Below, one piece after another: positions 948 to 37,178 of a DNA stretch of 38,730 nucleotides. Position 1 is the stretch's first letter; every line of letters begins with the position of its first letter. Made by a program: the position numbers and the translations under genes. Source of the DNA: a virus. Taxonomy: Duplodnaviria; Heunggongvirae; Uroviricota; Caudoviricetes. Under the pieces are notes generated by a model. The model saw nothing but the letters and a program-made list of their open reading frames with translations. It made no database searches and was not told the origin of the DNA. The DNA lies in IMG/VR virus record IMGVR_UViG_2778261630_000007. One strand, 5' to 3'.

Positions 948-3900
948 TTAACATTCCTCCATCACGTCGCATATTTAACAGAGCGCCCTGCACCCGCTGA
1001 TCAACCATCCCCATAAGTGCTTTTATTGCCTGAGGACCAATCTCTCCATTCTGGCCGTCATTTTGAATAGTGATTTGGTATACAGGGGCATAAGTAATAT
1101 CTCTGCCTCCATTACCACTTTTACTATTAATAGCTCTGACACCAAGAGAACCATCGGAAGTTCGCGTTAATGGCATAATAGCTTCCGGTCCAGCCTCACC
1201 AAAAACACCAGCTCCTTTTGCAAAAGCAAAAAATTGCGGGGAGTCATAAATACCGTTCGAATATGTACTCAATGACGGAGACTCATAAACACCGCCCTTT
1301 GCATTCGGAATAAATTTACTAATAGCACTCCCGATAGTTCCTAAAATACCCCCAGAAGAACTGTTACTAATGCTGTCGAAAATCCCAGTAATTGAAGCCT
1401 TTAATGCAATTCGACTAAGATCTGAAATCACGGAAGTAGCGAAAGAACGAAAATTTGCCTTGCCTGTCGTGACAAAATCACCTAGCGCATCGGTCATCCC
1501 ATCAAACATCTGAGTCGTGGTTGATTTTATTTGCGCACCGATATCCTTAGTGTCATCCAGCCAGTTATTGAATCCCTGGGAGGCACCACTAATCCAGTCT
1601 CCTGCCTGAATATCGAGCTGCTCGTTTTTCTGGCTGACAATTTCTTTTTCTCGCTCCAGAGCATCATTCAGAGCCTGCATTTTCTCCTGAAAAACATGAT
1701 TTGACATTCCACGGGATTTATCTGCATAGTCACGTTCAAGTTGCAGACGCTGATTGTTATATTCACGTTCAATCCGCAGTAATTCCTGCTGGCGTTGCTG
1801 ATTTTTATCGCCAACCCCATAACCAGCAATCTGAATATCATACCCCTGCTGACGATTATCAATCGAAGCCTGCAATGAATCACGCCATGCGGCTATTTCG
1901 GCGGATTCTTTGATTAGCCTGTTATTTTTTTCAATCGCAACATTTTTCTCCATCAACGCGGTTATTTCTTCCCGGTGTAAGAGAAGCGATTTCTGATCCT
2001 GGGTTAATTTCGATGACGGTCGTGACTCCAGGTCGGCAATCTGCTGACGCCACTTAACCAGTTCCTGTTCAGAGGAACTTAATTTAACGGTCAATTCAGC
2101 TTGTGAACTTAGTAACGCATTCTGTTGATTCAGATGATCAATCATTCGTTGGGCAGCATCATCCGAATAACCTTTCGCCTTTGGTTGCTTTGGATCTTTA
2201 TAACGCTCATTTATTTGAGCGATAAGATTATTATATTCTTCCTTTGAATACTGATTCTTTAGCTTTTCCAGTTTTGCAAGTTCACTAGCTCTCTGCTGCT
2301 CCCGGGTCTGATATTGTTTTGAAAAAGCATCTGCTCTCTGTCTGAGTTCAATTCCTTCCTGTTGTCGCTTGTTGTAATCGTTTATTGATGAATTTAGTAC
2401 GTCCTGAGCAATTTTTTCTGCTTGAAGTACGCCCAATTGCTGCTTTAATCGTGCCAGCTTTTTATTTTGAGCTCCGCCATCTCCAATGCCACCTAACCCG
2501 AAAACTCCGGGTCGGGTATTTTTTTCTATTTCATCAATTTGACGGAGAACATCTGAGATTTTTTGATCAAGGGAGGCCTCACGGCCAATATCCAGCATGG
2601 AATCCCATGCCCATTTTGCGGAGTCTGCGACAGCTTTCCATGCAGTCTCAAGATAACCAAGATTTTCTTTAATCTGGTTGGTGCGCTGGATCATTGAGGA
2701 TGAGTATGCTTCTGTCGCAATGCGGGCGGCCTCCTGCTGGTTCCCTTCATCCTGTAGCGCCTTAATCTGGTTATAAGTCGCAAGTGTCAGAAAATGGTAC
2801 TGATCATTAAGTTTTGATATAGCACTGACAGGATCCTTTGCAATTTCATTGAAGTCATTAACCAGTTGTTCGGTTGATATTCCTGTTACTTCGCTCGTTT
2901 TTACTATCGCTGTCGTCACTTGCTCCAGCGAACTGCTCGCTACCTTTCCCGAACGCACAAGCTGGTTTAATACTGCCGCCGCAGCGCCAGTTGTCGAATC
3001 AGCCGCATTCCCGGCACGTTGAGCTATATCGGCCAATTGCCCGCTGGTTGTCCCCAACTGATTTCCGGTAAGAATAAGAGATTTATTAAATTCGTCCTGC
3101 TCCTGAGAGCCTTTATAGTAAGCCAGCCCTAAGACGCCAACGGCTGCTGCGGCCAGGGTAAAAGGATTAATTAATCCCAGCACATAAGAACCTACACCTT
3201 TGATCGCCGGGCCAATCCCACCGAACATATCTTTTAGCTGGCCGCCCTGCTGCATTAACACCATAAATGGCGACTGACCAGTGGACAACCCAACAACAAT
3301 ATCCGTCATTTGTGCAGGCAACATGCGCATAGCAAAAGCCGTTTGTTTTGCCGACATTCCGGTTTTGCTTAATTGCGATTGAGTAACCTCAAGCTCACTC
3401 CGCATAGCACGAAGTTTTCCAGAAAGCTCCTCATACATTTCAGGAGAAAGCATCCCCTTAGCTTTTGCTTCATTGAGCTGTTTCTGTTGTTCTACCAGAC
3501 GATTAAAAGCAGTTCCGACAGGATCAAGTTGAGCAATCAGACGTTGCAAAGCAGCAACCTGTTCATCATGTGCTTTTGCTGCTTCTCGCTCTGCCTGAGC
3601 CTCTCCGGTAAGCTCTCGCCGTGTTTCCTGTATTTTTCGGCTATAATTCTCAAACTGAGAACCATTTATTTTCCCGGATGCAAACGCAGCATTAAGTTCA
3701 TCCTGCTGTTGTTCAAGATTTCTTAGCGCCGCAGCCAGAGGGTCGATCTTGTCCAGCATTCTTTGAAAGACCTGAGCCTGCGCTTCCTGCTGGGCGGCAG
3801 CAAGTTTTCCGGCCTTCTCGGCTTCTCTCTGCGCTTGCGCAACCCCGCTCAATTCCTCTGTGGTTTCATTAAGTTTACGGACAAGAAATTCATATTCTTC

Positions 3901-4173
3901 TTTATCAATAAGCCCTTTATCGAAAAATTTCTTTAATTCAGAATAGCGTCGACCGACAGTATCAATTGCGGCACCAACTGGATCAATAGCTGCTTTTAAT
4001 TTTGCGAGCGCGTTCTTCTCATCTTCTGTTGCCTTAGTCACTTTCCCTGCGCTATTTGCAGCAGTTTCCCCAGCCTGCGTCATTTTGACTAATGAGGAGG
4101 CCAGATTGTCAGCATTATTTTTCGCTCCAGTGCTATCAATAATTATTGCGAGACGCGAGGTTTGCTCTGCCAT
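940..4173 (-). CDS. tail tape measure protein (lambda gpH-like)
   Basis: 1077-aa ORF, long coiled-coil Ala/Gln/Glu-rich N-terminal half, Gly-rich hydrophobic central segment, position immediately after G/GT. AGGAG Shine-Dalgarno upstream of ATG at 4173. Confidence 0.9.
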
Positions 4174-4196
4174 TCATTAAAACTCCTGACAACAAA

Positions 4197-4216
4197 AAAC
4201 CCACCGAAGTGGGTTT
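4197..4216 (-). terminator. putative intrinsic terminator/attenuator hairpin between GT and the tape measure gene
   Basis: Minus strand reads AAACCCAC-TTCG-GTGGGTTT followed by TTTGTTGTC; 8-bp stem with tetraloop and U-run. Confidence 0.45.
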
Positions 4217-4336
4217 CAGGCGACATAATAGTAGATATAGCGATTACGAGGCCACGCAATGCTTTTCTCCAGGAGCATCATCGATTTAATTAAAGACACC
4301 ATCACATCTCTGTAACAGAGTGTACGTAATTAACAA

Positions 4337-4657
4337 CTACACACACTGCTCCTGAAAATACTGGTCATCCAGTGCAAAGATCACTGCTTCAAATTCATCG
4401 CGCTCGATCAATACCGGATGAGTGGCTAAATATTCATTTATCTCTGTCAGAGATAAAGGCAAAGGCACCCCAGTCATTCCAGCATAACGTCGGGCACGGG
4501 ATATTACCGAATAGGCGTACAACAATTCCTTAAGCACCGGGTCTATTTCTGGTTCCGGTATCGGTGGCAACCTGAGTTTTTCTCGCTTCCATCTTGCCTT
4601 TTCACCCTTTTCTCCCCCGAACTCCGATAACCACCGCTGGGCGGCTATGGCTTTTTT
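4337..4657 (-). CDS. T segment of tail assembly chaperone GT, reached by programmed -1 frameshift from G
   Basis: The -1 frame stays open from the slippery heptamer A_AAA_AAG (4651..4657) through the 77-aa ORF 4337..4570; classic G/GT arrangement just upstream of the tape measure gene. Confidence 0.7.
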   Translation of the reverse strand, partial: KKAIAAQRWLSEFGGEKGEKARWKREKLRLPPIPEPEIDPVLKELLYAYSVISRARRYAGMTGVPLPLSLTEINEYLATHPVLIERDEFEAVIFALDDQYFQEQCV

Positions 4658-5094
4658 ATCGTATCCTGCTTCTGCTGCTCTTTACCCTGGGCGATGCTGG
4701 CTGCTTCTGCAAGGATCTGCCAGTACAACTCCGGATTCTGCTTAAGCAGCGCGATCCCTCGTTCTGGCGTATATTCCAGTGCAACCTCAACACCATCAAC
4801 CAGTTCACCAACCCCTTTCCAGCCTTTCAGCAGATAACGAGCAGCATTATCAATGAGTAAATCATCAACAGAATCCACCTCGGAAACCTTTGCAATATCA
4901 AACTCCTTCGTTCCGACGTGCAAACTGGCATCCATTTTCTCAATGTGGCGACGGATTAATGCATTACGGGAGCGATACTGATCGTTATCGCTGCTTGCCA
5001 CCAACAGTTTTAACCCGTCTACAGGTTTTAAGTCCTTCATTGGGGTAAACCAGCGTTCACCACCGATGATAATTTTCTGATTAAGAATAAACAT
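4645..5094 (-). CDS. tail assembly chaperone G
   Basis: ORF between major tail and tape measure genes; ends ...ATA AAA AAG CCA TAG with a slippery heptamer two codons before the stop; ATG at 5094 preceded by GAGG (alternative ATG at 5106). Confidence 0.8.
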   Translation of the reverse strand: MFILNQKIIIGGERWFTPMKDLKPVDGLKLLVASSDNDQYRSRNALIRRHIEKMDASLHVGTKEFDIAKVSEVDSVDDLLIDNAARYLLKGWKGVGELVDGVEVALEYTPERGIALLKQNPELYWQILAEAASIAQGKEQQKQDTIKKP

Positions 5095-5154
5095 CCATAA
5101 CCTCATTCAATGCGCCCCCCTGTAGTGCAGTACCACAGGGGGAATAACGGAAAA

Positions 5155-6117
5155 TCAACTAATCGCCTCAGCACTGGCTTTTGCGATCACGGCAGCCGGG
5201 GAGGCTTTTTTTCTGGTTATCGTAGGTGCTTCATCTGCTGCGGTAATGCTCAATTGAACCTGGATAATGTCGGTATTACCCCCATCAGGCCATTCACCTG
5301 ACATCTGAACCTTCGGGAAACTGAAAGTGTATGCCCCCTCTCCATTCGAAAGCGTGAAGCTGAACGGAACTGTTTCTCCAGTCAGTGTTTTACTCCAGAT
5401 TTCCCACGCGGCTTTAGACCATGAAAGCGTCACCGTACCGGACGGTGTAAAAGTAGTCGGAATATTTGCTCCTGCATAAGGCGAGCCAGTCCCGATACAA
5501 CGCTGTGTCTGGAGTTTGTTATCGAACTGAATATCAAAACTGTCGATACAAAAACCGTTACCTCCGGCAACACCATTCAGGCTTACTGCTGAAACCTCCT
5601 TAAACGAATAACGTAGCTTTCCTGCACTATCCACAGGTTCGCCTTTGATAAAATTCGTATCATCGGCCTTTGATTCCCAGTCCAGCCCGGCAAAGGTTAC
5701 GGTCGCCGTAATATCGCCGTCGTTAGGGATCTGCATTTTCCATGAGCCAACCTGCGCTCCTCTGACAACAGAGGCAATTCCGACATCGGACGCATAGGTC
5801 GCCAGAGAAAATGTTATTCGCTCATTCCCCATTGTCAGAGAATCACCTGACCATTCCGCGCCGAAACAGGATGCAAGAAAATCATCATGTTGACCCCAGC
5901 GAAATTTGGTACCAACATCACCGCCAACATCCACAGTGCCAGGCGTCGCCCCCTGAGCCATCCGGGAGCCACCAATCTCATTATTTTCGCCTTTATTCTG
6001 GGTGGGTTTTACTCCCCAGCTTGTGCGTTTTAATAAACTCCAGTCACCACTTGCTGGTGTGGTGCCTGCAACTGTCTCCCGGATAAATGCCGAGATAACC
6101 TTTGCACCTGAACTCAC
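5155..6117 (-). CDS. major tail tube protein
   Basis: 320-aa ORF between the tail-terminator-like gene and G; GTG start at 6117 preceded by AGGAGG; Gly/Thr/Ser-rich beta-type composition. Confidence 0.75.
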   Translation of the reverse strand: MSSGAKVISAFIRETVAGTTPASGDWSLLKRTSWGVKPTQNKGENNEIGGSRMAQGATPGTVDVGGDVGTKFRWGQHDDFLASCFGAEWSGDSLTMGNERITFSLATYASDVGIASVVRGAQVGSWKMQIPNDGDITATVTFAGLDWESKADDTNFIKGEPVDSAGKLRYSFKEVSAVSLNGVAGGNGFCIDSFDIQFDNKLQTQRCIGTGSPYAGANIPTTFTPSGTVTLSWSKAAWEIWSKTLTGETVPFSFTLSNGEGAYTFSFPKVQMSGEWPDGGNTDIIQVQLSITAADEAPTITRKKASPAAVIAKASAEAIS

Positions 6118-12574: not shown

Positions 12575-13885
12575 TTAAATCCGAAGTGATGTGACTCTTC
12601 CGGTCGGTTTGACAATAGGGAATTGCTTAACGATGAAATAACCTCCGGCATCATTCGGGTGATCATTGCCAGATTTTTTATCAGGCTCCCCCTTATCATC
12701 CCAGACCTGTTGCTCCAGAGATTCGGCATATACCGGACAACGCTTCACATTAACTTTATAGCGACGCTCACCATTGGCATTGCAGAACATTGCATTCATT
12801 GAGTTAACGCGATCTTTTACTGGCGGGTTCGAGCTGTTCACCACAACGTTAAAACCAGCCTGCTTAAGCTGGGCTATATCCGTCGTACTTGCGTTACTTG
12901 ATTTTCTGGAATCTCCGGAAGCATCTGGATAAATATAAATCTCCCTCACTTTCCGGTAATCATTCCCGTCATACAGCCAGAAGCGTTCTTTAATGATGCG
13001 GATCATATCCGGCGTATCGTAGGCATTGATGATTTCAGTTACCGCACATGGAAGCCCCAAACGCAGCACATGGACGATCCCCGCCATCTTTCCAACGTTA
13101 AAATCCATCCCAATATAAATCGGCTCCCCTGGCTGCTCCACTTCTTCGCAATTATTCAGTTTCCGGTCAAACTGATGGTAAACAGTACCACTTGTCAGGT
13201 TAGTAAACTGTCCTCGAAGATAGGCTTTAATCAGCTCTGGAGGGTATGATTCAAGAAGCGAAGGAATGTAATCTGCTGGCAGGTTCTTTTCATTATCGAA
13301 AGTAGATGCCTGCACCAGACCATACAGTGAGGCCAGCTCTGTTTTTTCACGCACGGCTTTAACAAACTGCTCGTAGACAAATTTGAATCCTTCCGGCGTG
13401 GTTGTAACGTCAATACCGTTGCGAAGTCCATCAATCTTATAACGCATACGCGCAATTATCTTGCGCCACGCCGTTCTGGCTTTTTCCTTCGGCAAAATGT
13501 CCAGTTCATCCACCAGCGCATTACCAATTTTGAAACCGACGATCGTTTGTGGCTTCTCCATCGATCTGCAGATAGTGGTTCCCCGATACTGGCGTCCGTA
13601 ATAAAAGTGAACCTCTTTATTTCCCTCATTAATTTTTACGTTCAATCCCCAGTCAGCAGCAACTTCTTCCACTGTAGGGTAAAAAATATCGCGAATTTGG
13701 GGATACGTTGGCGCAAAATATCCCTGATTTATACCTGGATGCTCCCAAATCCCCTTGCATATGCCGCCACACCCAACCCATGTTTTGCCCGAGCCAAAAC
13801 CAGCAATATAGGCTTTAAATTTATGGGGCATTGAAAGAAATCGCGCCTGAGGCACATTAAGCGTCGGAGAGATCATCTTCATCAC
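12575..13885 (-). CDS. terminase large subunit
   Basis: 436 aa with an N-terminal Walker A-like FGSGKT motif; followed by the portal gene. Confidence 0.85.
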   Translation of the reverse strand: MMKMISPTLNVPQARFLSMPHKFKAYIAGFGSGKTWVGCGGICKGIWEHPGINQGYFAPTYPQIRDIFYPTVEEVAADWGLNVKINEGNKEVHFYYGRQYRGTTICRSMEKPQTIVGFKIGNALVDELDILPKEKARTAWRKIIARMRYKIDGLRNGIDVTTTPEGFKFVYEQFVKAVREKTELASLYGLVQASTFDNEKNLPADYIPSLLESYPPELIKAYLRGQFTNLTSGTVYHQFDRKLNNCEEVEQPGEPIYIGMDFNVGKMAGIVHVLRLGLPCAVTEIINAYDTPDMIRIIKERFWLYDGNDYRKVREIYIYPDASGDSRKSSNASTTDIAQLKQAGFNVVVNSSNPPVKDRVNSMNAMFCNANGERRYKVNVKRCPVYAESLEQQVWDDKGEPDKKSGNDHPNDAGGYFIVKQFPIVKPTGRVTSLRI

Positions 13886-14954: not shown

Positions 14955-15206
14955 TTAGTCCTGATTTTTATCCACCCTGAGTAGTTCGCGCAGAGCAAAG
15001 GCATCCCCTTTTCTGGCAAGCTTAAACAATGCCGCTCGTAACTCGGCTTCACCTTTCGCTCTGCCCTTACGGATGGCCGCATAAAAATCTGTCATTGCTT
15101 CCCGATTTTCTTTCAGTCGGTTCAGATCAACATCCAGAACGTCAGCGATTTGTTGTGCAGTCATCCGGCACGCTGCCAGAGACTCGACTTTCGAATACGG
15201 AATCAT
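14955..15206 (-). CDS. hypothetical small protein, possible HTH
   Basis: 83-aa ORF between the glycosyltransferase-like gene and the small terminase; start preceded by GGGTGA. Confidence 0.45.
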   Translation of the reverse strand: MIPYSKVESLAACRMTAQQIADVLDVDLNRLKENREAMTDFYAAIRKGRAKGEAELRAALFKLARKGDAFALRELLRVDKNQD

Positions 15207-16074
15207 TTGTCACCCCTATTGATATGCAGGGTGTCTTCTTCCTGTATTTTTCGTGAAGGATTTTTACTGCAGCGTTGTTCCAGGTGACCTGATGGTGAAT
15301 GCGTTTATGGCTGGCACCCATCAGTGAGATTTTTACGCACGACGGCGCATACATGACGGAGTAAAAACTTTTAACGTAGGTTCCGGAATCCAGATACAGC
15401 TCGGTCATTCCGCCGCTGTTTTTCTGCGTCTGTTTCTGCCCTAACTGGACAGCACCGATCGTCATAAACAATTCACCACAGCGACCGAGATTCGTGTACG
15501 TATTCACATCCTCGTTAATGCGCCCCATGAATGAGAACGGTCGATCAACCGAACAGATAAAGCTGTTCATTGCCTTGCGTTTCACCCACGAAGCATGGCC
15601 GCCATTGTCACCAAGAAAATCCCCGCCCTGCGACATAGCGATGGAAAGAGCAGGTATTGATTCGTAGTACGCCAGCATTTCAGAAAGGAGCGCATCCAGT
15701 TTCCTTATCGGAAAATAGGCCTGGTCATAGTTGCGATCCACCCGAAACTGGAACTCGTGATAATCATCATCGAGCTGAATGAAGTATTTACACCCGACCA
15801 GTTTTGCCAGGTCGAAACAGGCATTACGGGCGTAAAAAATTGAGCGGCGGTCACCGAAATTATCGGCTTCGTCAAAACGACTGGCGATATCGGCTTTGGA
15901 AAACACCAGCACCTGTTCACCAAATTCAGCCATGTACTGATGCCGTGTCTTATCTTCATCATCAACAACGATAAAAATTTTCCCGGTATAGCCAGCACGA
16001 CGCAACGTCCGGTAAGTCAGAACTTTGTCCGGTCGCCCGTGAGTCAGAATAAAGGTGCAAAAATCATCACGCAT
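15142..16074 (-). CDS. GT-A fold glycosyltransferase-like protein (soluble, DxD motifs)
   Basis: ATG at 16074 preceded by GGAGGAGGAGG; N-terminal FCTFILTHGRP strand, KIFIVVDDEDK and IQLDDDYHEF motifs match the GT-A / GT2 pattern; no hydrophobic segments. Start overlaps the ParB-like gene stop by 8 bp. Confidence 0.6.
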   Translation of the reverse strand: MRDDFCTFILTHGRPDKVLTYRTLRRAGYTGKIFIVVDDEDKTRHQYMAEFGEQVLVFSKADIASRFDEADNFGDRRSIFYARNACFDLAKLVGCKYFIQLDDDYHEFQFRVDRNYDQAYFPIRKLDALLSEMLAYYESIPALSIAMSQGGDFLGDNGGHASWVKRKAMNSFICSVDRPFSFMGRINEDVNTYTNLGRCGELFMTIGAVQLGQKQTQKNSGGMTELYLDSGTYVKSFYSVMYAPSCVKISLMGASHKRIHHQVTWNNAAVKILHEKYRKKTPCISIGVTNDSVFESRVSGSVPDDCTTNR

Positions 16075-16858
16075 ATTCCTCCTCCTCCCCACCATGCATG
16101 ATCTCCACCATGCGCTGCGTCATCCGGACAAATCCATTTTCAATAGCCTGCTGATAATCAATGATCACCAGCGCCGACTCCTCGAAAAAACACTGAATTT
16201 CAGCGGGGGCGTGAGCGTAATAGTCCGCAATTCTGCTGAAATTAAACACCGTGTGACGTTCTGCCGCACACAGGAGGAATTTCTCAATATCAGGCTCAAG
16301 GGACGCCGAACGTATCCGGCTGATCAGCTCCTGTGTTTTCGTATCGTCGTACAGTTCACTGATATCCGGTTTACCGCCCGACGGCTCATAAACAGGCGTA
16401 TCAATTTTCGTCGTATACGGCTCCTCCTCATTTCCTGTACCGGGCAAAACATCCGTCAACAGTTCATCAATTTCTGTCGGGCTGAAGCCTGTCAGGGAGA
16501 CATCAAAATCAGCATTGATCAGGTCCGACAGCTCCATCCGTAACAGATCTTCATCCCAGCCAGCATTCATCGGCAGGCGATTATCTGCCAGGCGGTACGC
16601 CTTTTTCTGCTCATCCATCAAACCAGACATAACGATGACCGGAATGGAATCCATTTTGAGCACTTCAGCCGCCATAACGCGACCGTGACCAGCAATAATT
16701 TCGCCCTTTTCATCAATCAGCACCGGATTAGTCCAGCCGAATTGCTTAATGCTTTCTACCAGTTGTGCCACCTGCTCAGGGCTGTGTGTCCTGGCGTTGT
16801 GTGCATACGGAGACAGTTCTTGTAAAGGGCGATAGACGATCTTCAATTTCTTGCTCAT
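16067..16858 (-). CDS. ParB N-terminal domain (ParB/Srx-fold nuclease-like) protein
   Basis: N-terminus YRPLQELSPYAHNARTHSPEQVAQLVESIKQFGWTNPVLIDEKGEIIAGHGRVMAAEVL is a typical ParB-NTD with GHxR motif; followed by an LTGFSPTEIDELL linker as in phage ParB-methyltransferase fusions. May correspond to the full-length form of the K-12 ynaK remnant (uncertain). Confidence 0.7.
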   Translation of the reverse strand: MSKKLKIVYRPLQELSPYAHNARTHSPEQVAQLVESIKQFGWTNPVLIDEKGEIIAGHGRVMAAEVLKMDSIPVIVMSGLMDEQKKAYRLADNRLPMNAGWDEDLLRMELSDLINADFDVSLTGFSPTEIDELLTDVLPGTGNEEEPYTTKIDTPVYEPSGGKPDISELYDDTKTQELISRIRSASLEPDIEKFLLCAAERHTVFNFSRIADYYAHAPAEIQCFFEESALVIIDYQQAIENGFVRMTQRMVEIMHGGEEEEYA

Positions 16859-20542: not shown

Positions 20543-20617
<75 letters not shown>

Positions 20618-20620
20618 ATA

Positions 20621-20696
<76 letters not shown>

Positions 20697-29283: not shown

Positions 29284-29580
29284 TCAGGTATGATCAAATG
29301 AGGATTTGTTACTGTCATTTAGTTGCTTCACTGACATATTCTGCGAACAACATGCCGAACGTCGTAAATATGACCAGTCAATATCAGGACGAAGCTCTTC
29401 GCACAGAATCTCACCTCTTGTTGCACGTTCAATTGCTGGACATCTCTCGGCAGGCAATTGACGTACCCCTTTGATCCATTGATTTACGCTTGGAGGTGAT
29501 ACACCTAAAAGCCTAGCCATTGCTGATTGCCCACCGACAACAGCACAAGCTTGCTTGAATGAATAGTTCTCTTTTTTCAT
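29284..29580 (-). CDS. ydaS: Cro/CII-like HTH regulator YdaS
   Basis: 98 aa; HTH core QSAMARLLGVSPPSVNQWIKGVRQLP; divergent from racR; GGAG upstream of ATG at 29580. Confidence 0.85.
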   Translation of the reverse strand: MKKENYSFKQACAVVGGQSAMARLLGVSPPSVNQWIKGVRQLPAERCPAIERATRGEILCEELRPDIDWSYLRRSACCSQNMSVKQLNDSNKSSFDHT

Positions 29581-29609
29581 CGAATGAACTCCAAAAACAC
29601 ACAGAAATA

Positions 29610-29649
29610 TTAGGCGACGCCTAACATAAATGTCAATAGGCTATGCCTA
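29610..29649. promoter_or_regulatory. OR-like operator region between ydaS and racR: two TAGGC-N3-GCCTA palindromes
   Basis: TAGGCgacGCCTA at 29612..29624 and TAGGCtatGCCTA at 29637..29649 in the 123-bp divergent intergenic region; a minus-strand TTGACA -35 lies at 29631..29636. Confidence 0.6.
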
Positions 29650-29703
29650 ATGCGATAAGGGTAGGGATTGCCTAATGCAATGAGCATAGGAGAATATTAA
29701 GCA

Positions 29704-30180
29704 ATGCTTAGTGGTAAAGACTTAGGCCGAGCGATAGAGCAGGCCATTAACAAAAAAATCGCATCGGGATCCGTCAAATCAAAGGCGGAGGTCGCACGCC
29801 ACTTCAAAGTCCAACCACCATCAATTTATGACTGGATTAAGAAAGGCTCCATAAGTAAAGATAAACTTCCAGAATTATGGCGTTTCTTTTCTGATGTTGT
29901 TGGTCCAGAGCATTGGGGGCTTAACGAATACCCCATACCAACCCCCACCAATTCAGATACAAAAAGTGAACTTTTAGATATAAACAACCTTTATCAAGCA
30001 GCCTCTGATGAAATAAGAGCGATTGTAGCTTTCCTGTTATCTGGAAATACTACAGAACCAGATTGGGTTGACCACGATGTTCGCGCCTACATAGCAGCGA
30101 TGGAAATGAAAGTGGGTAAGTATCTGAAAGCTCTAGAATCTGAACGGAAAAGCCAGAACATCACAAAAACTGGAACTTAA
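29704..30180 (+). CDS. racR: prophage repressor RacR
   Basis: 158 aa; N-terminal HTH (KSKAEVARHFKVQPPSIYDWIKKG); divergent from ydaS; AGGAG upstream of the start. Confidence 0.85.
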   Translation: MLSGKDLGRAIEQAINKKIASGSVKSKAEVARHFKVQPPSIYDWIKKGSISKDKLPELWRFFSDVVGPEHWGLNEYPIPTPTNSDTKSELLDINNLYQAASDEIRAIVAFLLSGNTTEPDWVDHDVRAYIAAMEMKVGKYLKALESERKSQNITKTGT

Positions 30181-30276
30181 ACTTATATGGTCTGACGGAA
30201 AACTCTTGGATTCCGTTATTTAACCCCCCATCACTTTCTCCTGTCGCCATCACCTATTAGGTTACGCCCAAAACAT

Positions 30277-30318
30277 TAGGCATAGCCTATTGACAATCAA
30301 TTAGGCATTACCTATAGT
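30277..30318 (+). promoter_or_regulatory. OL-like operator pair overlapping a sigma70-like promoter for the early-left operon
   Basis: TAGGCataGCCTA at 30277..30289, TTGACA at 30291..30296, TAGGCattaCCTA at 30302..30314, TATAGT at 30313..30318 with a 16-nt spacer. Confidence 0.55.
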
Positions 30319-30487
30319 TCCAGCATACCACCCACCCCGCCCCACAGAACGCAGGGCAATACTTCGAGTTACCAGGCAGTGGTAAGGGGTTAAGTAGCCA
30401 GCCCGAGGCGTATGAACATGACGGCGGGATTCAAATTTTGCAGTGCAGCAGTTAGTTCCGCCACCCGGCGTTAAGGGGAGAGATAAG

Positions 30488-30622
30488 ATGGTGCATTACG
30501 AAGTAGTTCAGTATTTGATGGATTGTTGCGATATCACTTACAGCCAGGCTGTACAGGCTCTACGCAGCAACGACTGGGATCTCTGGCAGGCAGAAGCCTC
30601 TATCCGCAACAACAAAATGTGA
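30488..30622 (+). CDS. ydaG: YdaG-like small protein (44 aa), below the ORF-track threshold
   Basis: ATG at 30488 preceded by GGGGAGAG; MVHYEVVQYLMDCCDITYSQAVQALRSNDWDLWQAEASIRNNKM; size and position match Rac ydaG. Confidence 0.55.
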   Translation: MVHYEVVQYLMDCCDITYSQAVQALRSNDWDLWQAEASIRNNKM

Positions 30623-30632
30623 GGTGCGAAAA

Positions 30633-30788
30633 ATGCAAAAAATCGACCTCGGCAATAACGAATCCCTAGTGTGCGGCGTGTTCCCCAACCAAGATGGAAC
30701 GTTCACTGCTATGACGTATACCAAAAGCAAAACATTTAAAACCGAAACTGGTGCGCGCCGATGGTTGGAGAAGCACACAGTAAGCTAA
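30633..30788 (+). CDS. ydaF: YdaF-like small protein (51 aa), below the ORF-track threshold
   Basis: ATG at 30633 preceded by GAGGTG; MQKIDLGNNESLVCGVFPNQDGTFTAMTYTKSKTFKTETGARRWLEKHTVS. Confidence 0.55.
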   Translation: MQKIDLGNNESLVCGVFPNQDGTFTAMTYTKSKTFKTETGARRWLEKHTVS

Positions 30789-31273
30789 CGATTAAAACGT
30801 CTACTCCTGCTGTTCCAGAATAACTTCATAAAATGGGAGTATTTTTCGGTGACGAGATAATAAGAACAGTTTGCGCTATCACTCTGATGTTGAATGATGC
30901 CCTTCCGTTCTAATTTTTTCATAACCGGGTTACGGCAAGGAGAAGTGATAATAAGATTTCCTGTTTTAAGGAAATCTTTAAATACAGCGATTTCTTTCTC
31001 AGATAAACGAAGCAATACTCGTTGCTCTGGTAGTAATGAATAATGCTTTTGAATATGTGCTCGCAATCTTGAGAAGGAAATGGCGACCACGAAAGAAAAG
31101 GCAAAAACGATAATCTGAAAGAGCCAAGGTATTTCAGTATAAGCATTGAATTCGACAGTAAACTCTTTCGGTATCAGCCAGAGAGTGAGACCAAAAATGA
31201 TAATCGTATACATAAGTCTTTCGAGTAGCTCGTTAGCAAAAAGTTTCAACAATGGAGTAAATACATCCAACAT
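30785..31273 (-). CDS. sieB: superinfection exclusion protein B
   Basis: 162 aa from ATG at 31273 (MLDVFTPLLKLFANELLERLMYTIIIFGLTLWLIPKEF...); two TM segments; AT-rich; matches Rac SieB size and position. Confidence 0.8.
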   Translation of the reverse strand: MLDVFTPLLKLFANELLERLMYTIIIFGLTLWLIPKEFTVEFNAYTEIPWLFQIIVFAFSFVVAISFSRLRAHIQKHYSLLPEQRVLLRLSEKEIAVFKDFLKTGNLIITSPCRNPVMKKLERKGIIQHQSDSANCSYYLVTEKYSHFMKLFWNSRSRRFNR

Positions 31274-31491
31274 ATCAATAATTCTCAACTGTAAGGGTAT
31301 TGAAATGTTAACACAAGCTCTCGCTGTAGGGGTATAGCCGAGACCACCGAAGCCCGGAGGTGGTGAAATAAAACCGGGCACAACACGAAGGCGCACTTCC
31401 GGTATCCATAAAGAGTCGGTCTTGTCTGTTAAATTTAAATGGTGGGAGTGCGCCTCCGGTTGTAAATAACAACACTGCTGTGTGTAGTCTT

Positions 31492-31539
31492 GGCGGCATC
31501 AGTTTTTTCTTGAAGTTCGACTGATGTCCGCCCTTTTTA
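31492..31539 (+). terminator. putative + strand hairpin with U-run upstream of kilR (terminator or antitermination element)
   Basis: GGCGGCATCAG ... CTGATGTCCGCC (11 to 12 bp stem, 18-nt loop) followed by CTTTTTAAA. Confidence 0.35.
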
Positions 31540-31713
31540 AAGTGAATTTTGTGATGCGGTGAATGCGGCTAAGCGCACGCGGCACAGTTAAAAGTCATGT
31601 TAGTCCTTATTGGTTTGGGTGGGAAAGCCGACTGTAATTGTTAACTGGTTGCAGTCACCTGGAGGCACCAGGCACCGCATCAACAAAGTTCATTTGTAAA
31701 AATGGAGATAATT

Positions 31714-31935
31714 ATGATTGCACATCACTTCGGAACTGATGAAATACCACGTCAGTGTGTGACTCCTGGTGATTATGTTCTTCATGAAGGCCGGACATAT
31801 ATCGCCTCGGCAAACAATATTAAAAAGCGAAAACTTTATATTCGTAACCTGACTACAAAAACATGCATTTCTGACTGCATGATTAAAGTCTTCCTCGGTC
31901 GTGATGGTTTACCAGTAAAGGCGGAGTCATGGTGA
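31714..31935 (+). CDS. kilR: KilR, FtsZ-targeting cell division inhibitor
   Basis: 73 aa from ATG at 31714 preceded by GGAGA; [49 protein letters not shown]... matches Rac KilR as recalled. Confidence 0.85.
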
Positions 31936-32105
31936 TGACTAAGAAAATAAAATGTGCTTACCACCTTTGCAATAAAGGAATTGAAGAAAGCAAAAGCATT
32001 AAAAGACCACTTCATTTCATGCGTGGAGTTATCCCAACGACGGAAATGAAAAAATATTGTAGTGAAAATTGTGCCGAAAAAGACCAGATGGCACACGAAC
32101 TTTAA
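31935..32105 (+). CDS. ydaE: YdaE-like small Cys-rich protein (56 aa)
   Basis: ATG at 31935 overlaps the kilR stop (TGATG); [56 protein letters not shown]. Confidence 0.7.
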   Translation: MTKKIKCAYHLCNKGIEESKSIKRPLHFMRGVIPTTEMKKYCSENCAEKDQMAHEL

Positions 32106-32178
32106 TTAACTGACTATGCGAAACTGAATTTATGCCAGCAATGGCAGGGATTCGCTCAACCTTAATTAAGGAGAAAAA

Positions 32179-32454
32179 ATGATTACCAATTATGAAGTCA
32201 CTGTTGTAACTACCGATGACATTGTTCACGAGGTTAATCTGGAAGGAAAGCGTATTGGCTACGTGATTAAAACAGAAAATAAAGAAACCCCATTCACTGT
32301 GGTTGATATTGACGGCCCATCAGGCAACGTAAAAACACTTGATGAAGGTGTCACAAAAATGAGTCTGGTTCACATCGGAAAGAATCTGCCCGTAGAAAAA
32401 AAAGCCGGATTTCTGGCAACTCTGATTGCAATGAAATTAAAAGGTGAAATCTGA
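32179..32454 (+). CDS. racC: RacC protein
   Basis: 91 aa; AAGGAGA upstream; MITNYEVTVVTTDDIVHEVNLEGKRIGYVIKTENKETPF... matches Rac RacC as recalled. Confidence 0.8.
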   Translation: MITNYEVTVVTTDDIVHEVNLEGKRIGYVIKTENKETPFTVVDIDGPSGNVKTLDEGVTKMSLVHIGKNLPVEKKAGFLATLIAMKLKGEI

Positions 32455-32552
32455 AAAAAGAAAGCCTGCACAACGTGCAGGCCTGAGTGAAGAACCTGGG
32501 ACATTTATTCATCACTCGCAGTAATTTTAATCTGAGTTGAGGTTAAAAAACA

Positions 32553-33284
32553 ATGAGCACAAAACCACTCTTCCTGTTACGGAAAGCGAAAAAATCATCC
32601 GGTGAACCTGACGTCGTCCTGTGGGCAAGCGACGATTTTGAATCGACCTGTGCCACTCTGGACTACCTGATCGTTAAGTCAGGTAAAAAACTGAGCAGCT
32701 ATTTTAAAGCTGTTGCCACGAATTTTCCTGTCGTTAATGACCTGCCCCCTGAAGGTGAGATCGATTTTACCTGGAGTGAACGCTATCAACTCAGCAAAGA
32801 CTCCATGACCTGGGAACTAAAATCGGGAGCAGCGCCAGACGACGTTCACCATCAGGAGAATGCTCAGGAAACCGAAGAACTGACGGGAGGGCAGGAAGAA
32901 AACACACTGGCAGACGCTCACGGGGATTGCCAGGATTGCGAAGTTTCTGTATCTACTTTGCGGTTCACACAGCGTCTTCTGCACATTTTTACGTATGCGG
33001 CCGGGAATCGGAAATACCTGCATCATGCCACCCGTGAACAACGCGAACACATTACTGCTCTTGAGATGGATCAGGAAAACAGCTATGTCCAGAATCTGCT
33101 GTTGGCCATACGCGGTATGGCAGAACCGACAACTCTGGATAATGCCGCCCTGCTCCGCCTGACTGATGCAATTAAGGCAGTTTTCTCTATCACGAAAAAA
33201 CATCAGCCCTATGAATTTAAGAATTTCATTTCAGCCTGGCTGGATACCGAACACATTGATCGTGGTCTTCTGACAAAAGAATGA
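32553..33284 (+). CDS. recE: RecE (exonuclease VIII) N-terminal segment, ending at an in-frame TGA
   Basis: MSTKPLFLLRKAKKSSGEPDVVLWASDDFESTCATLDYLIVKSGKKLSSYFKAVATNFPVVNDLP... matches the RecE N-terminus as recalled; TGA at 33282..33284; the downstream ORF is in the same frame with no intervening stop. Confidence 0.7.
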   Translation: MSTKPLFLLRKAKKSSGEPDVVLWASDDFESTCATLDYLIVKSGKKLSSYFKAVATNFPVVNDLPPEGEIDFTWSERYQLSKDSMTWELKSGAAPDDVHHQENAQETEELTGGQEENTLADAHGDCQDCEVSVSTLRFTQRLLHIFTYAAGNRKYLHHATREQREHITALEMDQENSYVQNLLLAIRGMAEPTTLDNAALLRLTDAIKAVFSITKKHQPYEFKNFISAWLDTEHIDRGLLTKE

Positions 33285-33431
33285 AGGAAAGGGAATCGTG
33301 TTTCACGCATCACTCGCACGGCTTCCGGTGCTAATGCTGGCGGCGGGAACCTCACCGATCGCGGCGAAGGTTTCGTCCACGATCTGACGTCACTGGCACG
33401 CGATGTAGCCACTGGCGTACTGGCCCGTTCA

Positions 33432-35675
33432 ATGGACGTGGACATCTATAACCTTCATCCGGCACACGCTAAACGCATTGAGGAAATTATCGCTGAAAAT
33501 AAACCGCCCTTTTCTGTTTTCCGCGACAAATTCATCACCATGCCTGGCGGGCTGGATTATTCACGCGCCATCGTGGTTGCGTCCGTGAAAGAAGCACCAA
33601 TTGGGATCGAGGTCATCCCCGCGCACGTCACTGAATATCTGAACAAAGTACTGACTGAAACCGATCATGCCAACCCTGATCCGGAAATCGTGGATATTGC
33701 CTGCGGTCGCTCCTCTGCCCCGATGCCGCAGCGTGTAACAGAAGAAGGAAAACAGGATGATGAAGAAAAACCGCAACCATCTGAAACAACGGCAGATGAA
33801 CAGGGAGAGGCTGAAACAATGGAACCGGACGCAACTGAACATCATCAGGACACGCAGCCGCTGGATGCTCAGTCACAGGTAAATTCTGTTGATGCGAAAT
33901 ATCAGGAACTGCGGGCAGAACTCCATGAAGCCCGGAAAAACATTCCATCAAAAAATCCTGTCGATGCCGATAAATTGCTTGCTGCATCACGTGGTGAATT
34001 TGTTGACGGAATTAGCGACCCGAACGATCCGAAATGGGTTAAGGGGATCCAGACTCGCGATTCTGTGTACCAGAACCAGCCAGAAACGGAAAAAACCAGC
34101 CCGGATGTGAAACAACCTGAGGCAGTAGTGCAACAGGAACCGGAAATAGTCTGCAATGCCTGCGGTCAGACTGGCGGAGATAACTGCCCTGACTGTGGGG
34201 CGGTGACGGGCGACGCAACATACCAGGAAACATTCGATGAAGAGAATCAGGTTGAAGCTAAGGAAAAAGATCCGGTGGAAATGGAAGGCGCTGAACATCC
34301 GCACAATGAGAATGCTGGCAGCGATCCGCATCGTGATTGCAGTGATGAAACTGGTGAAGCGTCAGCTCCTGTAGCAACTGAAATCATGTGGCCGTCATAT
34401 TTCGAGCCTGGCCGCTATGAAAACCTCCCGAACGAGGTTTATCACTCCGCCAACGGAATAAGCAGCACGATGCTGAAGGATGCCCGTATCAGCCTGATGT
34501 ATTACCACGGACGGCACATTGCCGGAACTATTCCGAACGAGGAAAGTGATGCACTGCTGCGTGGGCGGATCATTCACAGCTATGTTCTGGAAACGGATAA
34601 ATTCGCTGATGAATATGCCATTCCGGTACCGGTTCCTGAATATGTGGTTACTACTTCTAGCGAACTGATCGCCATCATTAAAAAACACAATGCCAGTCTG
34701 CCAGCACTGATGACACCAGAGCAGATGAAAGAGTGGATCGAAAGCTACAACAGCACTCTTATACAGCCACTGTCTGTAAGTGCCGGGGCCGAAGAAACAG
34801 GCATCCTTTACGGTTCGCTTCCGGTGGAATTTCGGCGTATTCCTGAGGGGGAAAAACACACAGCATCAGCAATGAAAGCCTGTATTAAAGAATACAACGC
34901 AAGCCTCCCTCCTCTGTTGAAAACCAGTGGAGCACGGGAGCAGCTTCTGGATCAAATTGAAACTGTAGACCCAGAACTGGCAAAAAAAGAACGTGCTAAA
35001 TCTTTGCCTTACAACATCAGTGGCACAAAAGAGCAATTAACCGAAATCGCACGGAAAATTCGCCCGGAACTGGTGACACTGGAGGACTGGCAAAAACGCC
35101 AGCAAGAAGAAAATGCCGGGAAAACGTTTATCAGTCCGGAGATGTATGAACAGGCAAAAAATATTCACGCGGCACTGCAAAACAATACCGATGCAGCAAG
35201 GCTACTCAACCACCCGGATCGCAAATCTGAAATCAGCTATTTCGGGTTTGATGAAGAAACCGGGCTGGAAATCAGGGTCCGTCCTGATATCGAAATCCGG
35301 CTGCCATACGAAAGCATTTGCGCTGACGTGAAGTCAGTCAGCCTCGGTTATGTGCGACAGGAACGACTTAAAGATCGCCTGCACCGTGAAATTATTGAGC
35401 GTGATTATCACCTCAGCGCCGCAATGTATTGCGATGTGGCAAACCTGGACAAATTTTTCTGGATCTTCGTCAACAAAGATGCTGGCTATCACTGGGTGGC
35501 AGTCGTGGAAGCCTCGCAGGAACTCCTGGAACTTGGTCGACAGGAATATCGCCGGACGCTACGCCAGATAAACGAAGCCCTGGAGACAAACAACTGGCCA
35601 GCACCGATTACCGAAAGTTATACCGACGAATTAAACGACTTTGATCTTCGTCGTCTTGAAGCACTGAGCATCTGA
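33432..35675 (+). CDS. recE: RecE (exonuclease VIII) central region and C-terminal nuclease domain
   Basis: 747-aa ORF in the same frame as 32553..33284; the 49 codons between them also read as RecE-like ([33 protein letters not shown]...); acidic central linker; C-terminal domain is divergent from K-12 RecE as recalled. Confidence 0.75.
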
Positions 35676-35686
35676 GGAAGGACACA

Positions 35687-36739
35687 ATGAACGAATTAAC
35701 TCAACAAGAAAATATTAACTCTAATGTTGCGGTTTTCAGCCCTCAGTCCCTGGCTGCAATTCAGACATTTTCCCAGGTAATGGCTTCCGGCATGGCTACT
35801 GTACCGGAACACCTCCGGGGAAATCCATCAGACTGCATGGCCATCACCATGCAGGCGATGCAGTGGCAAATGAACCCTTACGCAGTAGCTCAGAAAACTT
35901 TCGTTGTGAATGGTGTGCTCGGATATGAAGCGCAACTGGTTAATGCCGTAATCAGTACTCGTGGGCCGCTAACCGGGCGTATTGAATATGACTGGTTCGG
36001 GCCGTGGGAAAAAATTATCGGGAAATTTGAAATCAGGAAGAGCGACAAAGGGAAAGAATATCGTGTACCTGGCTGGAAGCTGGCCGATGAAAACGGGATC
36101 GGTGTTCGTGTCCAGGCAACACTACGCGGCGAAAGTAAACCACGCGTACTGGAATTACTTCTGGCGCAGGCCAGAACACGTAACTCAACGCTATGGGCCG
36201 ACGATCCTCGCCAGCAGCTTGCCTATCTAGCGCTGAAACGCTGGGCGCGCCTTTATTGCCCCGAAGTGATTCTTGGAGTGTACACCAGGGACGAACTGGA
36301 CGAGCCACAGGAAAAAATCATTAATCCGGTTCAGGAACATAAAAACACTTCCGCTTGCCGCGCGGAACGTGAAACAACAATTATTGAGCAGGATGCCGGG
36401 GAAAACTGGATCGATGCTTTCCGTGAACGTATTGAGCAGGCACAAAGCACCGGGGAAACAACAGCACTTCGCCAGGAAGTGGAAGATCATAAAAATACAC
36501 TTGGCGCTCTCTATACGGAACTTAAAGGAAAAGTGGTTCAGCGTCATCACCGTCTCAATGCTATTGCCCGTATCGAGAAGATGATAAATGACCTACCTTC
36601 TTCAGGTGATCCAGAAGCAGAACAAAAATTTACTGCTCTGGAAAATACGCTGAATGCTGCCCGGCCACATCTGGGTGAATTATATGAGGCGTATAAAACG
36701 ACACTGACAGATATGAAACCAGAATATATCGGCTCCTGA
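35687..36739 (+). CDS. single-strand annealing protein (RecT/Redbeta superfamily, Bet-like)
   Basis: 350 aa directly after recE with GAGGAAGGA upstream; ...QWQMNPYAVAQKTFVVNGVLGYEA... and ...STLWADDPRQQLAYLALKRWARLY... resemble lambda Bet more than K-12 RecT. Confidence 0.65.
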   Translation: MNELTQQENINSNVAVFSPQSLAAIQTFSQVMASGMATVPEHLRGNPSDCMAITMQAMQWQMNPYAVAQKTFVVNGVLGYEAQLVNAVISTRGPLTGRIEYDWFGPWEKIIGKFEIRKSDKGKEYRVPGWKLADENGIGVRVQATLRGESKPRVLELLLAQARTRNSTLWADDPRQQLAYLALKRWARLYCPEVILGVYTRDELDEPQEKIINPVQEHKNTSACRAERETTIIEQDAGENWIDAFRERIEQAQSTGETTALRQEVEDHKNTLGALYTELKGKVVQRHHRLNAIARIEKMINDLPSSGDPEAEQKFTALENTLNAARPHLGELYEAYKTTLTDMKPEYIGS

Positions 36740-36802: not shown

Positions 36803-36997
36803 ATGCGGTATGAAAAAGTCAAACCATGCCCTTTTTGTGGTTGTCCATCAGTAACGGTGAAAGCCATTTCCGGATATTACCGCGCGAAGTGTAACGGATG
36901 CGAATCCCGAACCGGCTATGGTGGAAGTGAAAAAGAAGCACTCGAACGATGGAATAAACGAACCACTGGAAATAATAATGGAGGTGTTCATGTATAA
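36803..36997 (+). CDS. ralR: restriction alleviation protein Lar/RalR
   Basis: 64 aa from ATG at 36803; MRYEKVKPCPFCGCPSVTVKAISGYYRAKCNGCESRTGYGGSEKEALERWNKR...; Cys4 zinc-ribbon; position between the annealing protein gene and ydaC as in Rac. Confidence 0.65.
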   Translation: MRYEKVKPCPFCGCPSVTVKAISGYYRAKCNGCESRTGYGGSEKEALERWNKRTTGNNNGGVHV

Positions 36998-37178
36998 AAT
37001 TACCGCCACTATTGAAAAGGAAGGTGGCACTCCTACTAACTGGACAAGGTACTCAAAAACAAAATTAACCAAATCAGAATGCGAAAAAATGCTCTCAGGT
37101 AAAAAAGAAGCAGGCGTTTCCAGAGAGCAGAAAGTAAAACTGATAAATTTTAATTGCGAGCAACTTCAGTCCTCGTGA
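36990..37178 (+). CDS. ydaC: YdaC-like small protein
   Basis: ATG at 36990 preceded by GGAGGTG; MYKITATIEKEGGTPTNWTRYSKTKLTKSECEKMLSGKK...; 8-bp overlap with lar. Confidence 0.6.
   Translation: MYKITATIEKEGGTPTNWTRYSKTKLTKSECEKMLSGKKEAGVSREQKVKLINFNCEQLQSS

Follow-up and report, generated by a model that had tools for sequence, protein, structure and literature searches.

In a Rac-type lambdoid prophage, we identified a recE gene that carries, with a probability that we put at ~0.88, a private and very recent nonsense mutation, i.e., a loss-of-function and at most leaky allele in an otherwise intact prophage. The window, i.e., the whole stretch of 38,730 nt that was analyzed, places this prophage next to ttcA and dbpA, which Rac adjoins in K-12 as well. 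Judging from the alleles compared, the stop is a TGG (Trp244) to TGA change produced by one G→A transition at 33284, and the ancestral codon is TGG. The gene, its parts, and its neighbors are as follows (positions are those of the window).

32179..32454, + strand: racC-like gene, 91 aa, directly upstream of recE (ORF list; same position as K-12 racC)
32553..35675, + strand: recE, a 1040-codon Rac-variant allele (exodeoxyribonuclease VIII) interrupted at codon 244 (homology to strain 135 and K-12)
32553..33284, + strand: recE 5′ fragment, 243 codons plus the premature TGA, with the RecE N-terminal domain only (ORF list, PF06630)
33282..33284, + strand: premature stop TGA, Trp244→stop, with the mutated base A at 33284; equivalent to K-12 RecE Trp227 (allele comparison)
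33285..33431, + strand: 49 in-frame sense codons of RecE without a canonical start, i.e., no in-frame ATG, GTG, or TTG (ORF list, sequence, K-12 alignment)
33432..35675, + strand: rest of the recE frame, 747 codons, from the first in-frame ATG, which equals K-12 Met277 (ORF list)
33819..33821, + strand: in-frame ATG, codon 423, with an SD-like CAGGGAGA (spacing 10, −8.2 kcal/mol); possible internal start (SD scoring)
34434..35615, + strand: PD-(D/E)XK nuclease domain of the RecE/DUF3799 type (PF12684, PDB 3H4R match)
35687..36739, + strand: recT, intact, a 350-aa RecT-family annealase (PF03837, E = 5e-43)

One recE frame with a single in-frame TGA

Both recE ORFs start at positions divisible by three (32553 and 33432) and thus share a common frame; what separates them is the TGA and 147 nt (33285–33431), i.e., 49 stop-free codons. 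The ORF list therefore agrees with the sequence-only reading, which had placed the 243- and 747-codon ORFs in one frame with the TGA at 33282..33284 between them and had described the intervening 49 codons as stop-free and RecE-like. The chance that 49 random codons contain no stop is ~9.5% ((61/64)^49), which is weak evidence taken alone. The likeness to RecE was confirmed by alignment, with 47 of the 49 bridging codons identical to K-12 RecE residues 228–276, and because of this match the two ORFs are one gene with one stop.

Analysis of the predicted products revealed the domains of the RecE family on both sides of the TGA. Specifically, the N-terminal domain was recognized in the 243-aa piece (PF06630, Exonuc_VIII, residues 2–182, E = 1.3e-67), and the PDDEXK nuclease domain was recognized near the end of the 747-codon piece (PF12684, E = 9e-14). 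The solved nuclease domain of RecE (PDB 3H4R) gave a match with an E-value of 1.3e-6 in two aligned stretches (query residues 335–447 and 596–728), and the motifs EVYHS..., RVRPD, and ADVK of the window RecE are those that align with it. The RPD...DVK catalytic motif of the C-terminal nuclease domain is kept, with RVRPD...ADVK aligning with RCRPD...MDVK of K-12. Relative to K-12 RecE, protein identity is 68% over the first 753 residues, in addition to the match in the nuclease core.

The setting of the gene is also that of the RecE family: in the early-left region of a Rac-type prophage, it has racC upstream and the RecT annealase directly after it. The racC-like gene is 91% identical to its homologue in MEI003, and RecT is 100% identical to the WP_001004422-type RecT. 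Of the family features compared, the one missing from this locus is an unbroken frame from the N-terminal region to the nuclease domain, which the TGA at codon 244 interrupts.

Intact recE alleles and the base at 33284

A full-length recE homologue was present in 88 of the 5426 complete E. coli genomes. In the closest relatives (strains 135, ETEC1706, and GmM062), recE is annotated as uninterrupted (3123 nt, 1040 codons), and it is flanked by a racC-like gene on one side and a 350-aa RecT on the other, after which come ralR, a DUF1187 gene, xisR, and intR. The strain 135 allele (NZ_CP080260, WP_016248739.1) is 99.6% identical to that of the window, with all 11 differences in 3123 nt falling within 32993–33398; around codon 244, it reads TGG CGA, whereas the window has TGA AGG. 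With 121 bp around the stop as the query, none of the 5426 complete genomes matched exactly, and ten matched with a single mismatch; the three of these that were fetched have G at 33284 (TGG AGG). Strain 190 (NZ_CP020520, N-terminal part) matches the window across 29553–33562 except at 31374 and 33284. Both strains 135 and 190 thus have TGG at codon 244 in recE CDSs annotated as complete, whereas the window has TGA.

The same codon was found more widely. TGG occupies codon 244 in all ten fetched loci that were located by codon scan (L001–L007, L012, L014, and L015), and Trp is present at the aligned position in K-12 (Trp227) as well as in database proteins P0003, P0004, and P0018. Within the 3123-nt gene, the base at 33284 is the only one absent from the intact alleles compared. 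As expected of a pseudogene, the interrupted codon is a sense codon in both close and distant homologues, and homology continues in frame on both sides of the stop. Alignment to intact recE alleles had been proposed in the sequence-only reading as a way to see whether TGG is ancestral. Every intact allele inspected carries TGG, and K-12 has Trp227; the opposite outcome, i.e., reference alleles that all have a stop at this site, was not seen among them. The first alternative of that reading, a nonsense mutation truncating RecE, is therefore supported.

Downstream of the stop, we found no secondary decay (more stops or frameshifts), and from 33399 to 35675, the sequence does not differ from the intact allele of strain 135. 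The lack of any further change in this part indicates a very recent mutation and not a long-standing pseudogene. Against this, the lack of downstream decay as such fits a very recent mutation and continued use of the sequence equally well.

A sequencing or assembly error, with G as the true base at 33284 and recE intact, had also been raised from the sequence alone, and we regard it as very unlikely. The exact 243-aa and 747-aa products occur on two contigs only, namely NLTD01000007.1 of the E. coli assembly GCA_002232835.1, evidently the source of the window, and a Logan contig from run SRR3407787, both 100% identical to the window over 11–12 kb. Hence, the TGA allele was seen in one strain only and in none of the 5426 complete genomes, and the single substitution rests on two assemblies, perhaps of the same isolate or even of the same reads, all of which leaves some room for an error. 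However, the NCBI assembly and the separately built Logan assembly (SRR3407787) agree over 11.1 kb that include 33284, and the change is a substitution, not a homopolymer indel. In addition, a second private SNP (31374) lies in the same 4 kb, which would put the divergence at ~5e-4 per base, well above typical consensus error.

The rest of the prophage also argues against an error. The related MEI003 prophage has 46 CDSs, four of which have no counterpart in the window; the other 42 were compared. With the exception of recE, their counterparts align essentially end to end (two are 1–7 residues short) and contain no internal stop, which indicates that the assembly is not error-prone and leaves recE as the only lesion found. 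No NCBI protein accession exists for the 243-aa or the 747-aa product, in line with the gene having been called a pseudogene in the annotation as deposited.

Predicted products of the interrupted gene

The nuclease domain of K-12 RecE comprises residues 564–866 (PMC11611040), so a stop at the equivalent of K-12 residue 227 removes it. After prophage derepression, ribosomes that start at ATG 32553 would stop at codon 244, yielding an N-terminal fragment of 243 residues that lacks the nuclease domain, and the PD-(D/E)XK nuclease (codons ~628–1021) would not be made in normal amounts. A little nuclease-containing protein could arise by near-cognate Trp-tRNA readthrough of the UGA, which would restore the wild-type residue, or by weak internal initiation, e.g., at ATG 33819. 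recT has its own SD (GAGGAAGGA, −7.9 kcal/mol), which overlaps the natural recE stop, making its translation independent of that of recE; RecT would probably still be translated unless Rho-dependent polarity lowers the transcript. By C/G composition, no clear Rho-utilization signal was found downstream of the premature stop, where only two 80-nt windows are mildly C-rich (C/G of 1.9 at 33445 and 1.5 at 33605). RecE-dependent double-strand-end recombination is predicted to be lost or strongly reduced, and RecT annealing to be kept.

The nuclease part might instead be usefully translated on its own, from ATG 33432, ATG 33819, or GTG 34275/ATG 34281. If such a functional split gene were real, the strain would keep RecE nuclease/RecT recombination and lose the N-terminal region only; we consider it unlikely. 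It is true that the downstream frame and its RPD...DVK catalytic motif are intact and that the isolated nuclease domain can, in genetic terms, stand in for full-length K-12 RecE (PMC11611040), so that even weak initiation upstream of codon ~580 could give some activity. Two sites upstream of the nuclease domain are SD-like, namely that of ATG 33819, the best among the internal starts, and that of GTG 34275 (codon 575; CUAAGGAA, −6.0 kcal/mol). However, both are present in intact alleles as well and were thus neither created nor selected in response to the stop, and the mutation is too recent for compensatory change.

The scoring of internal starts leads in the same direction. Before ATG 33432, the first in-frame ATG, the strongest SD:anti-SD duplex reaches only −1.5 kcal/mol, compared with a median of −6.4 kcal/mol over 31 probable gene starts of the window and −6.3 kcal/mol for the recE start itself (GAGGUU), which bears out the earlier remark that the downstream piece has no evident ribosome-binding site at its nominal start. 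Among the 33 internal in-frame candidates, two reach −6 kcal/mol or lower, which is what the background of 7.5% predicts (P = 0.72), and the chance of at least one site as good as that of ATG 33819 (−8.2 kcal/mol) among 33 is P = 0.51. An evolved internal start was accordingly considered unlikely, as 33432 has no SD and the other SD-like sites occur at chance frequency. The out-of-frame GTG at 33298, which is preceded by AAGGAAAGGG, opens a 29-codon ORF in the +1 frame only. No promoter-like site or terminator was detected on the + strand inside recE. In work by Chu, Templin, and Clark (1989), an N-terminal recE frameshift reportedly needed in-frame gene fusions for activity; internal initiation in K-12 recE would then be poor. 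Thus, nothing in the sequence supports the idea, also put forward earlier, that the C-terminal domain is made from an internal start.

We further considered if the UGA could be a programmed recoding site, decoded as selenocysteine or read through in a regulated manner so as to control how much short RecE is made relative to long RecE. This has a next to negligible probability, although the UGA is followed by A and Trp-tRNA readthrough, seen at the percent level in K-12 reporters, would bring back the ancestral residue. Conservation of the UGA is lacking, as every other allele inspected has TGG and TGA is private to one strain, and a strain-private feature cannot be an evolved recoding signal. 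No stable (SECIS-like) stem-loop was found downstream of it. Specifically, the 90 nt around and after the UGA fold with an MFE of −20.8 compared with a shuffle mean of −23.0 (z = 0.64), and in 147 of 200 shuffles, the fold was at least as good; a search for Rfam elements within recE returned none. On these two grounds, i.e., an unconserved UGA and no downstream structure, selenocysteine insertion and programmed readthrough were rejected.

Ordinary leakiness of the codon bears on how complete the loss would be. In an E. coli K-12 reporter, UGA readthrough amounted to ~2% at 37°C and 4% at 25°C (PMC10570021). As the UGA could be similarly leaky here and readthrough would put back the ancestral Trp, the allele may be a hypomorph and not a null. 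K-12 RF2 is unusually weak, and wild isolates probably read through UGA less.

As to the cause of the stop, the default is neutral mutation of recE, which the lysogen keeps repressed. Alternatively, the stop may have been selected because the RecE nuclease is harmful in its host, e.g., by triggering a retron-type toxin/antitoxin defense. K-12 RecE was reported to trigger retron-Sen2 and retron-Eco9 by degrading msDNA, and RacC was reported to block the retron toxin (bioRxiv 10.1101/2020.06.22.160242). These published effects, the position of racC just upstream of recE, and the fact that no lesion other than that of recE was found in the otherwise intact prophage speak for selection. It nevertheless appears improbable, since one lesion in one strain is the neutral expectation, the repression of recE in the lysogen leaves little opportunity for selection, and an intact racC-like gene is present; moreover, no recurrent stops at codon 244 or nearby were seen among the complete genomes and database proteins compared. 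A more specific proposal, by analogy, would be a selected down-tuning or inactivation in which Trp-tRNA readthrough supplies RecE at the percent level, so that retron abortive infection is avoided and RacC and RecT remain intact; this we regard as slightly less probable still. A role in defense escape, if true, would be of moderate interest, but the present analysis gives it no support.

Overall, the stop is most probably an ordinary, very recent gene-inactivating change in a well-known gene and not a new mechanism. There is nothing novel in a TGG→TGA nonsense allele (W244*) of recE in one strain, and the locus is best annotated as a recE pseudogene with this internal stop, not as two genes. 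Its ancestry makes it a recE gene, but in its present state, it is a pseudogene or, at most, a leaky allele. As a clean case of very recent inactivation in one step, in a prophage that is otherwise intact, it could serve as a natural control for the contribution of the RecE N-terminal region or nuclease to prophage fitness. Beyond correct annotation, its importance is small.

Comparison with K-12 Rac and other recE genes

The closest well-studied counterpart is recE of the K-12 Rac prophage (b1350, exonuclease VIII, 866 aa), which is uninterrupted and has Trp227 at the position of the stop. The first ~100 residues and residues 241–600 of the window RecE are nearly identical to it, whereas residues ~100–240 have diverged. 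The nuclease domain of the window is a distant variant of that of K-12, with ~29% identity in the core and an insertion of ~140 aa. Accordingly, the proteins differ in size: the intact form of the window's type has 1040 aa compared with 866 aa in K-12, and RecT has 350 aa compared with 269 aa. Common to both RecE proteins are the PF06630 N-terminal domain and a PD-(D/E)XK nuclease of the family with RPD...DVK, and the gene order kilR-ydaE-racC-recE-recT-ralR-(DUF1187)-xisR-intR beside ttcA is the same in K-12 Rac.

The part of the gene downstream of the stop also resembles the truncated RecE used in recombineering (K-12 residues ~564/588–866), in that both contain the nuclease domain. Such truncated constructs show that the downstream part suffices for nuclease activity and RecT-dependent recombination (PMC11611040). 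However, they are equipped with an engineered promoter and start codon, whereas the window sequence offers no efficient start.

Disrupted recE genes also occur in other E. coli prophages. Two kinds of database entries proved to be poor guides to them. The PGAP name 'RecE family exodeoxyribonuclease' was rejected as a proxy by which to count recE pseudogenes: two of the four entries checked were true pseudogenes, and the other two were intact ORFs of 657–677 aa that have no nuclease domain and precede gam-bet-exo. Likewise, RecE proteins of the same 90% cluster that are short and labeled 'partial' were rejected as independent truncations, as they are contig-end fragments that still read TKEWRKGNRV. 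The two true pseudogenes are independent inactivations of the same gene, one in strain 06-00048, where recE is frameshifted and truncated, and one in strain 2014C-3051, where it is split by IS600. Other disrupted prophage recE genes in E. coli thus owe their state to a frameshift, a deletion, or an IS, often with further rearrangement, whereas the recE of the window differs by a single base substitution only.

Composition of the recE gene

We found that the window recE (32553-35675, + strand) matches two Escherichia coli alleles in succession: as far as 33562 it has the sequence of strain 190 (NZ_CP020520), the premature-stop base at 33284 excepted, and from 33399 to its end it has that of strain 135 (NZ_CP080260), so that 33399-33562 agrees with both. 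Beyond the equivalent of 33562, strain 190, unlike the window, runs on into a K-12-type nuclease and a 269-aa recT, which shows module exchange inside the gene; the window recE looks like a recombinant. Across 29553-33562 (4 kb), the sole other difference from strain 190 is at 31374, upstream of the annotated sieB start.

Compared with K-12 RecE and the nuclease-domain structure 3H4R, the window variant carries an insertion of ~140 aa within its PD-(D/E)XK domain. The insertion, in which two similar segments can be seen by eye, has no Pfam family match, and the partner of this variant is a longer RecT of 350 aa. A GC-rich hairpin sits within the 98 nt that separate the racC-like gene from recE. 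An intrinsic terminator would require a T-run, and the hairpin has one solely on the minus strand; read along the plus strand, it is preceded by an A-run.

32462-32484, GC-rich hairpin, 10-bp (AAGCCTGCACAACGTGCAGGCCT)
34434-35615 (+), RecE nuclease domain, with the insertion chiefly at ~34640-35200

The RecE N-terminal region in other records

In some Rac-type prophages, the ~600 N-terminal residues of RecE form an intact separate ORF, as in two fetched recE loci, L012 and L013; the window counterpart is 32553-34400.

L012 (NZ_AP042570) 3501-5534, intact stand-alone RecE N-terminal ORF, 677 aa, not flagged as a pseudogene
L013 (NZ_CP054665) 2814-4787, intact stand-alone RecE N-terminal ORF, 657 aa, not flagged as a pseudogene

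Since these ORFs are intact without the nuclease domain and are followed on their 3′ side by lambda-type gam-bet-exo, which replaces the recE nuclease and recT, the N-terminal region is suggested to be a separable module, retained beside differing exonuclease/annealase pairs.

A recE 95.4% identical to the window's E. coli Rac-type gene over all 3123 nt also occurs at positions 1857-4979 of PP818812.1, a record named 'Actinobacillus phage vB_Apl-pPE4' with Actinobacillus pleuropneumoniae given as host. This host is unexpected, as the sequence looks like that of an E. coli prophage.

Terminase region and RNA genes

12575-13885 (−), intact large terminase, 435 aa, Terminase_6N + 6C
15142-16095 (−), 317-aa ORF, PF20691 'TET-associated glycosyltransferase' (Pfam E=3e-35)
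16067-16858 (−), intact ynaK-like protein with a ParB N-terminal domain, 262 aa, adjoining the PF20691 ORF
20543-20617 (−), prophage-borne tRNA-Gly(UCC)
20621-20696 (−), prophage-borne tRNA-Thr(UGU)
36996-37174 (−), RalA antitoxin sRNA (Rfam RF02694, 215 bits)

The PF20691 ORF, annotated only as hypothetical in relatives, has the small terminase gene on one side and trkG on the other; the tRNA pair is flanked by DUF1133 (Q-region) genes and lysis genes. The related prophage of strain MEI003 also carries this tRNA pair, but its ynaK-like ParB-domain protein is truncated and its large terminase, annotated as a pseudogene, is broken by an HNH endonuclease gene, whereas both are intact in the window. 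As in K-12 Rac, RalA is antisense to the ralR/DUF1187 region.
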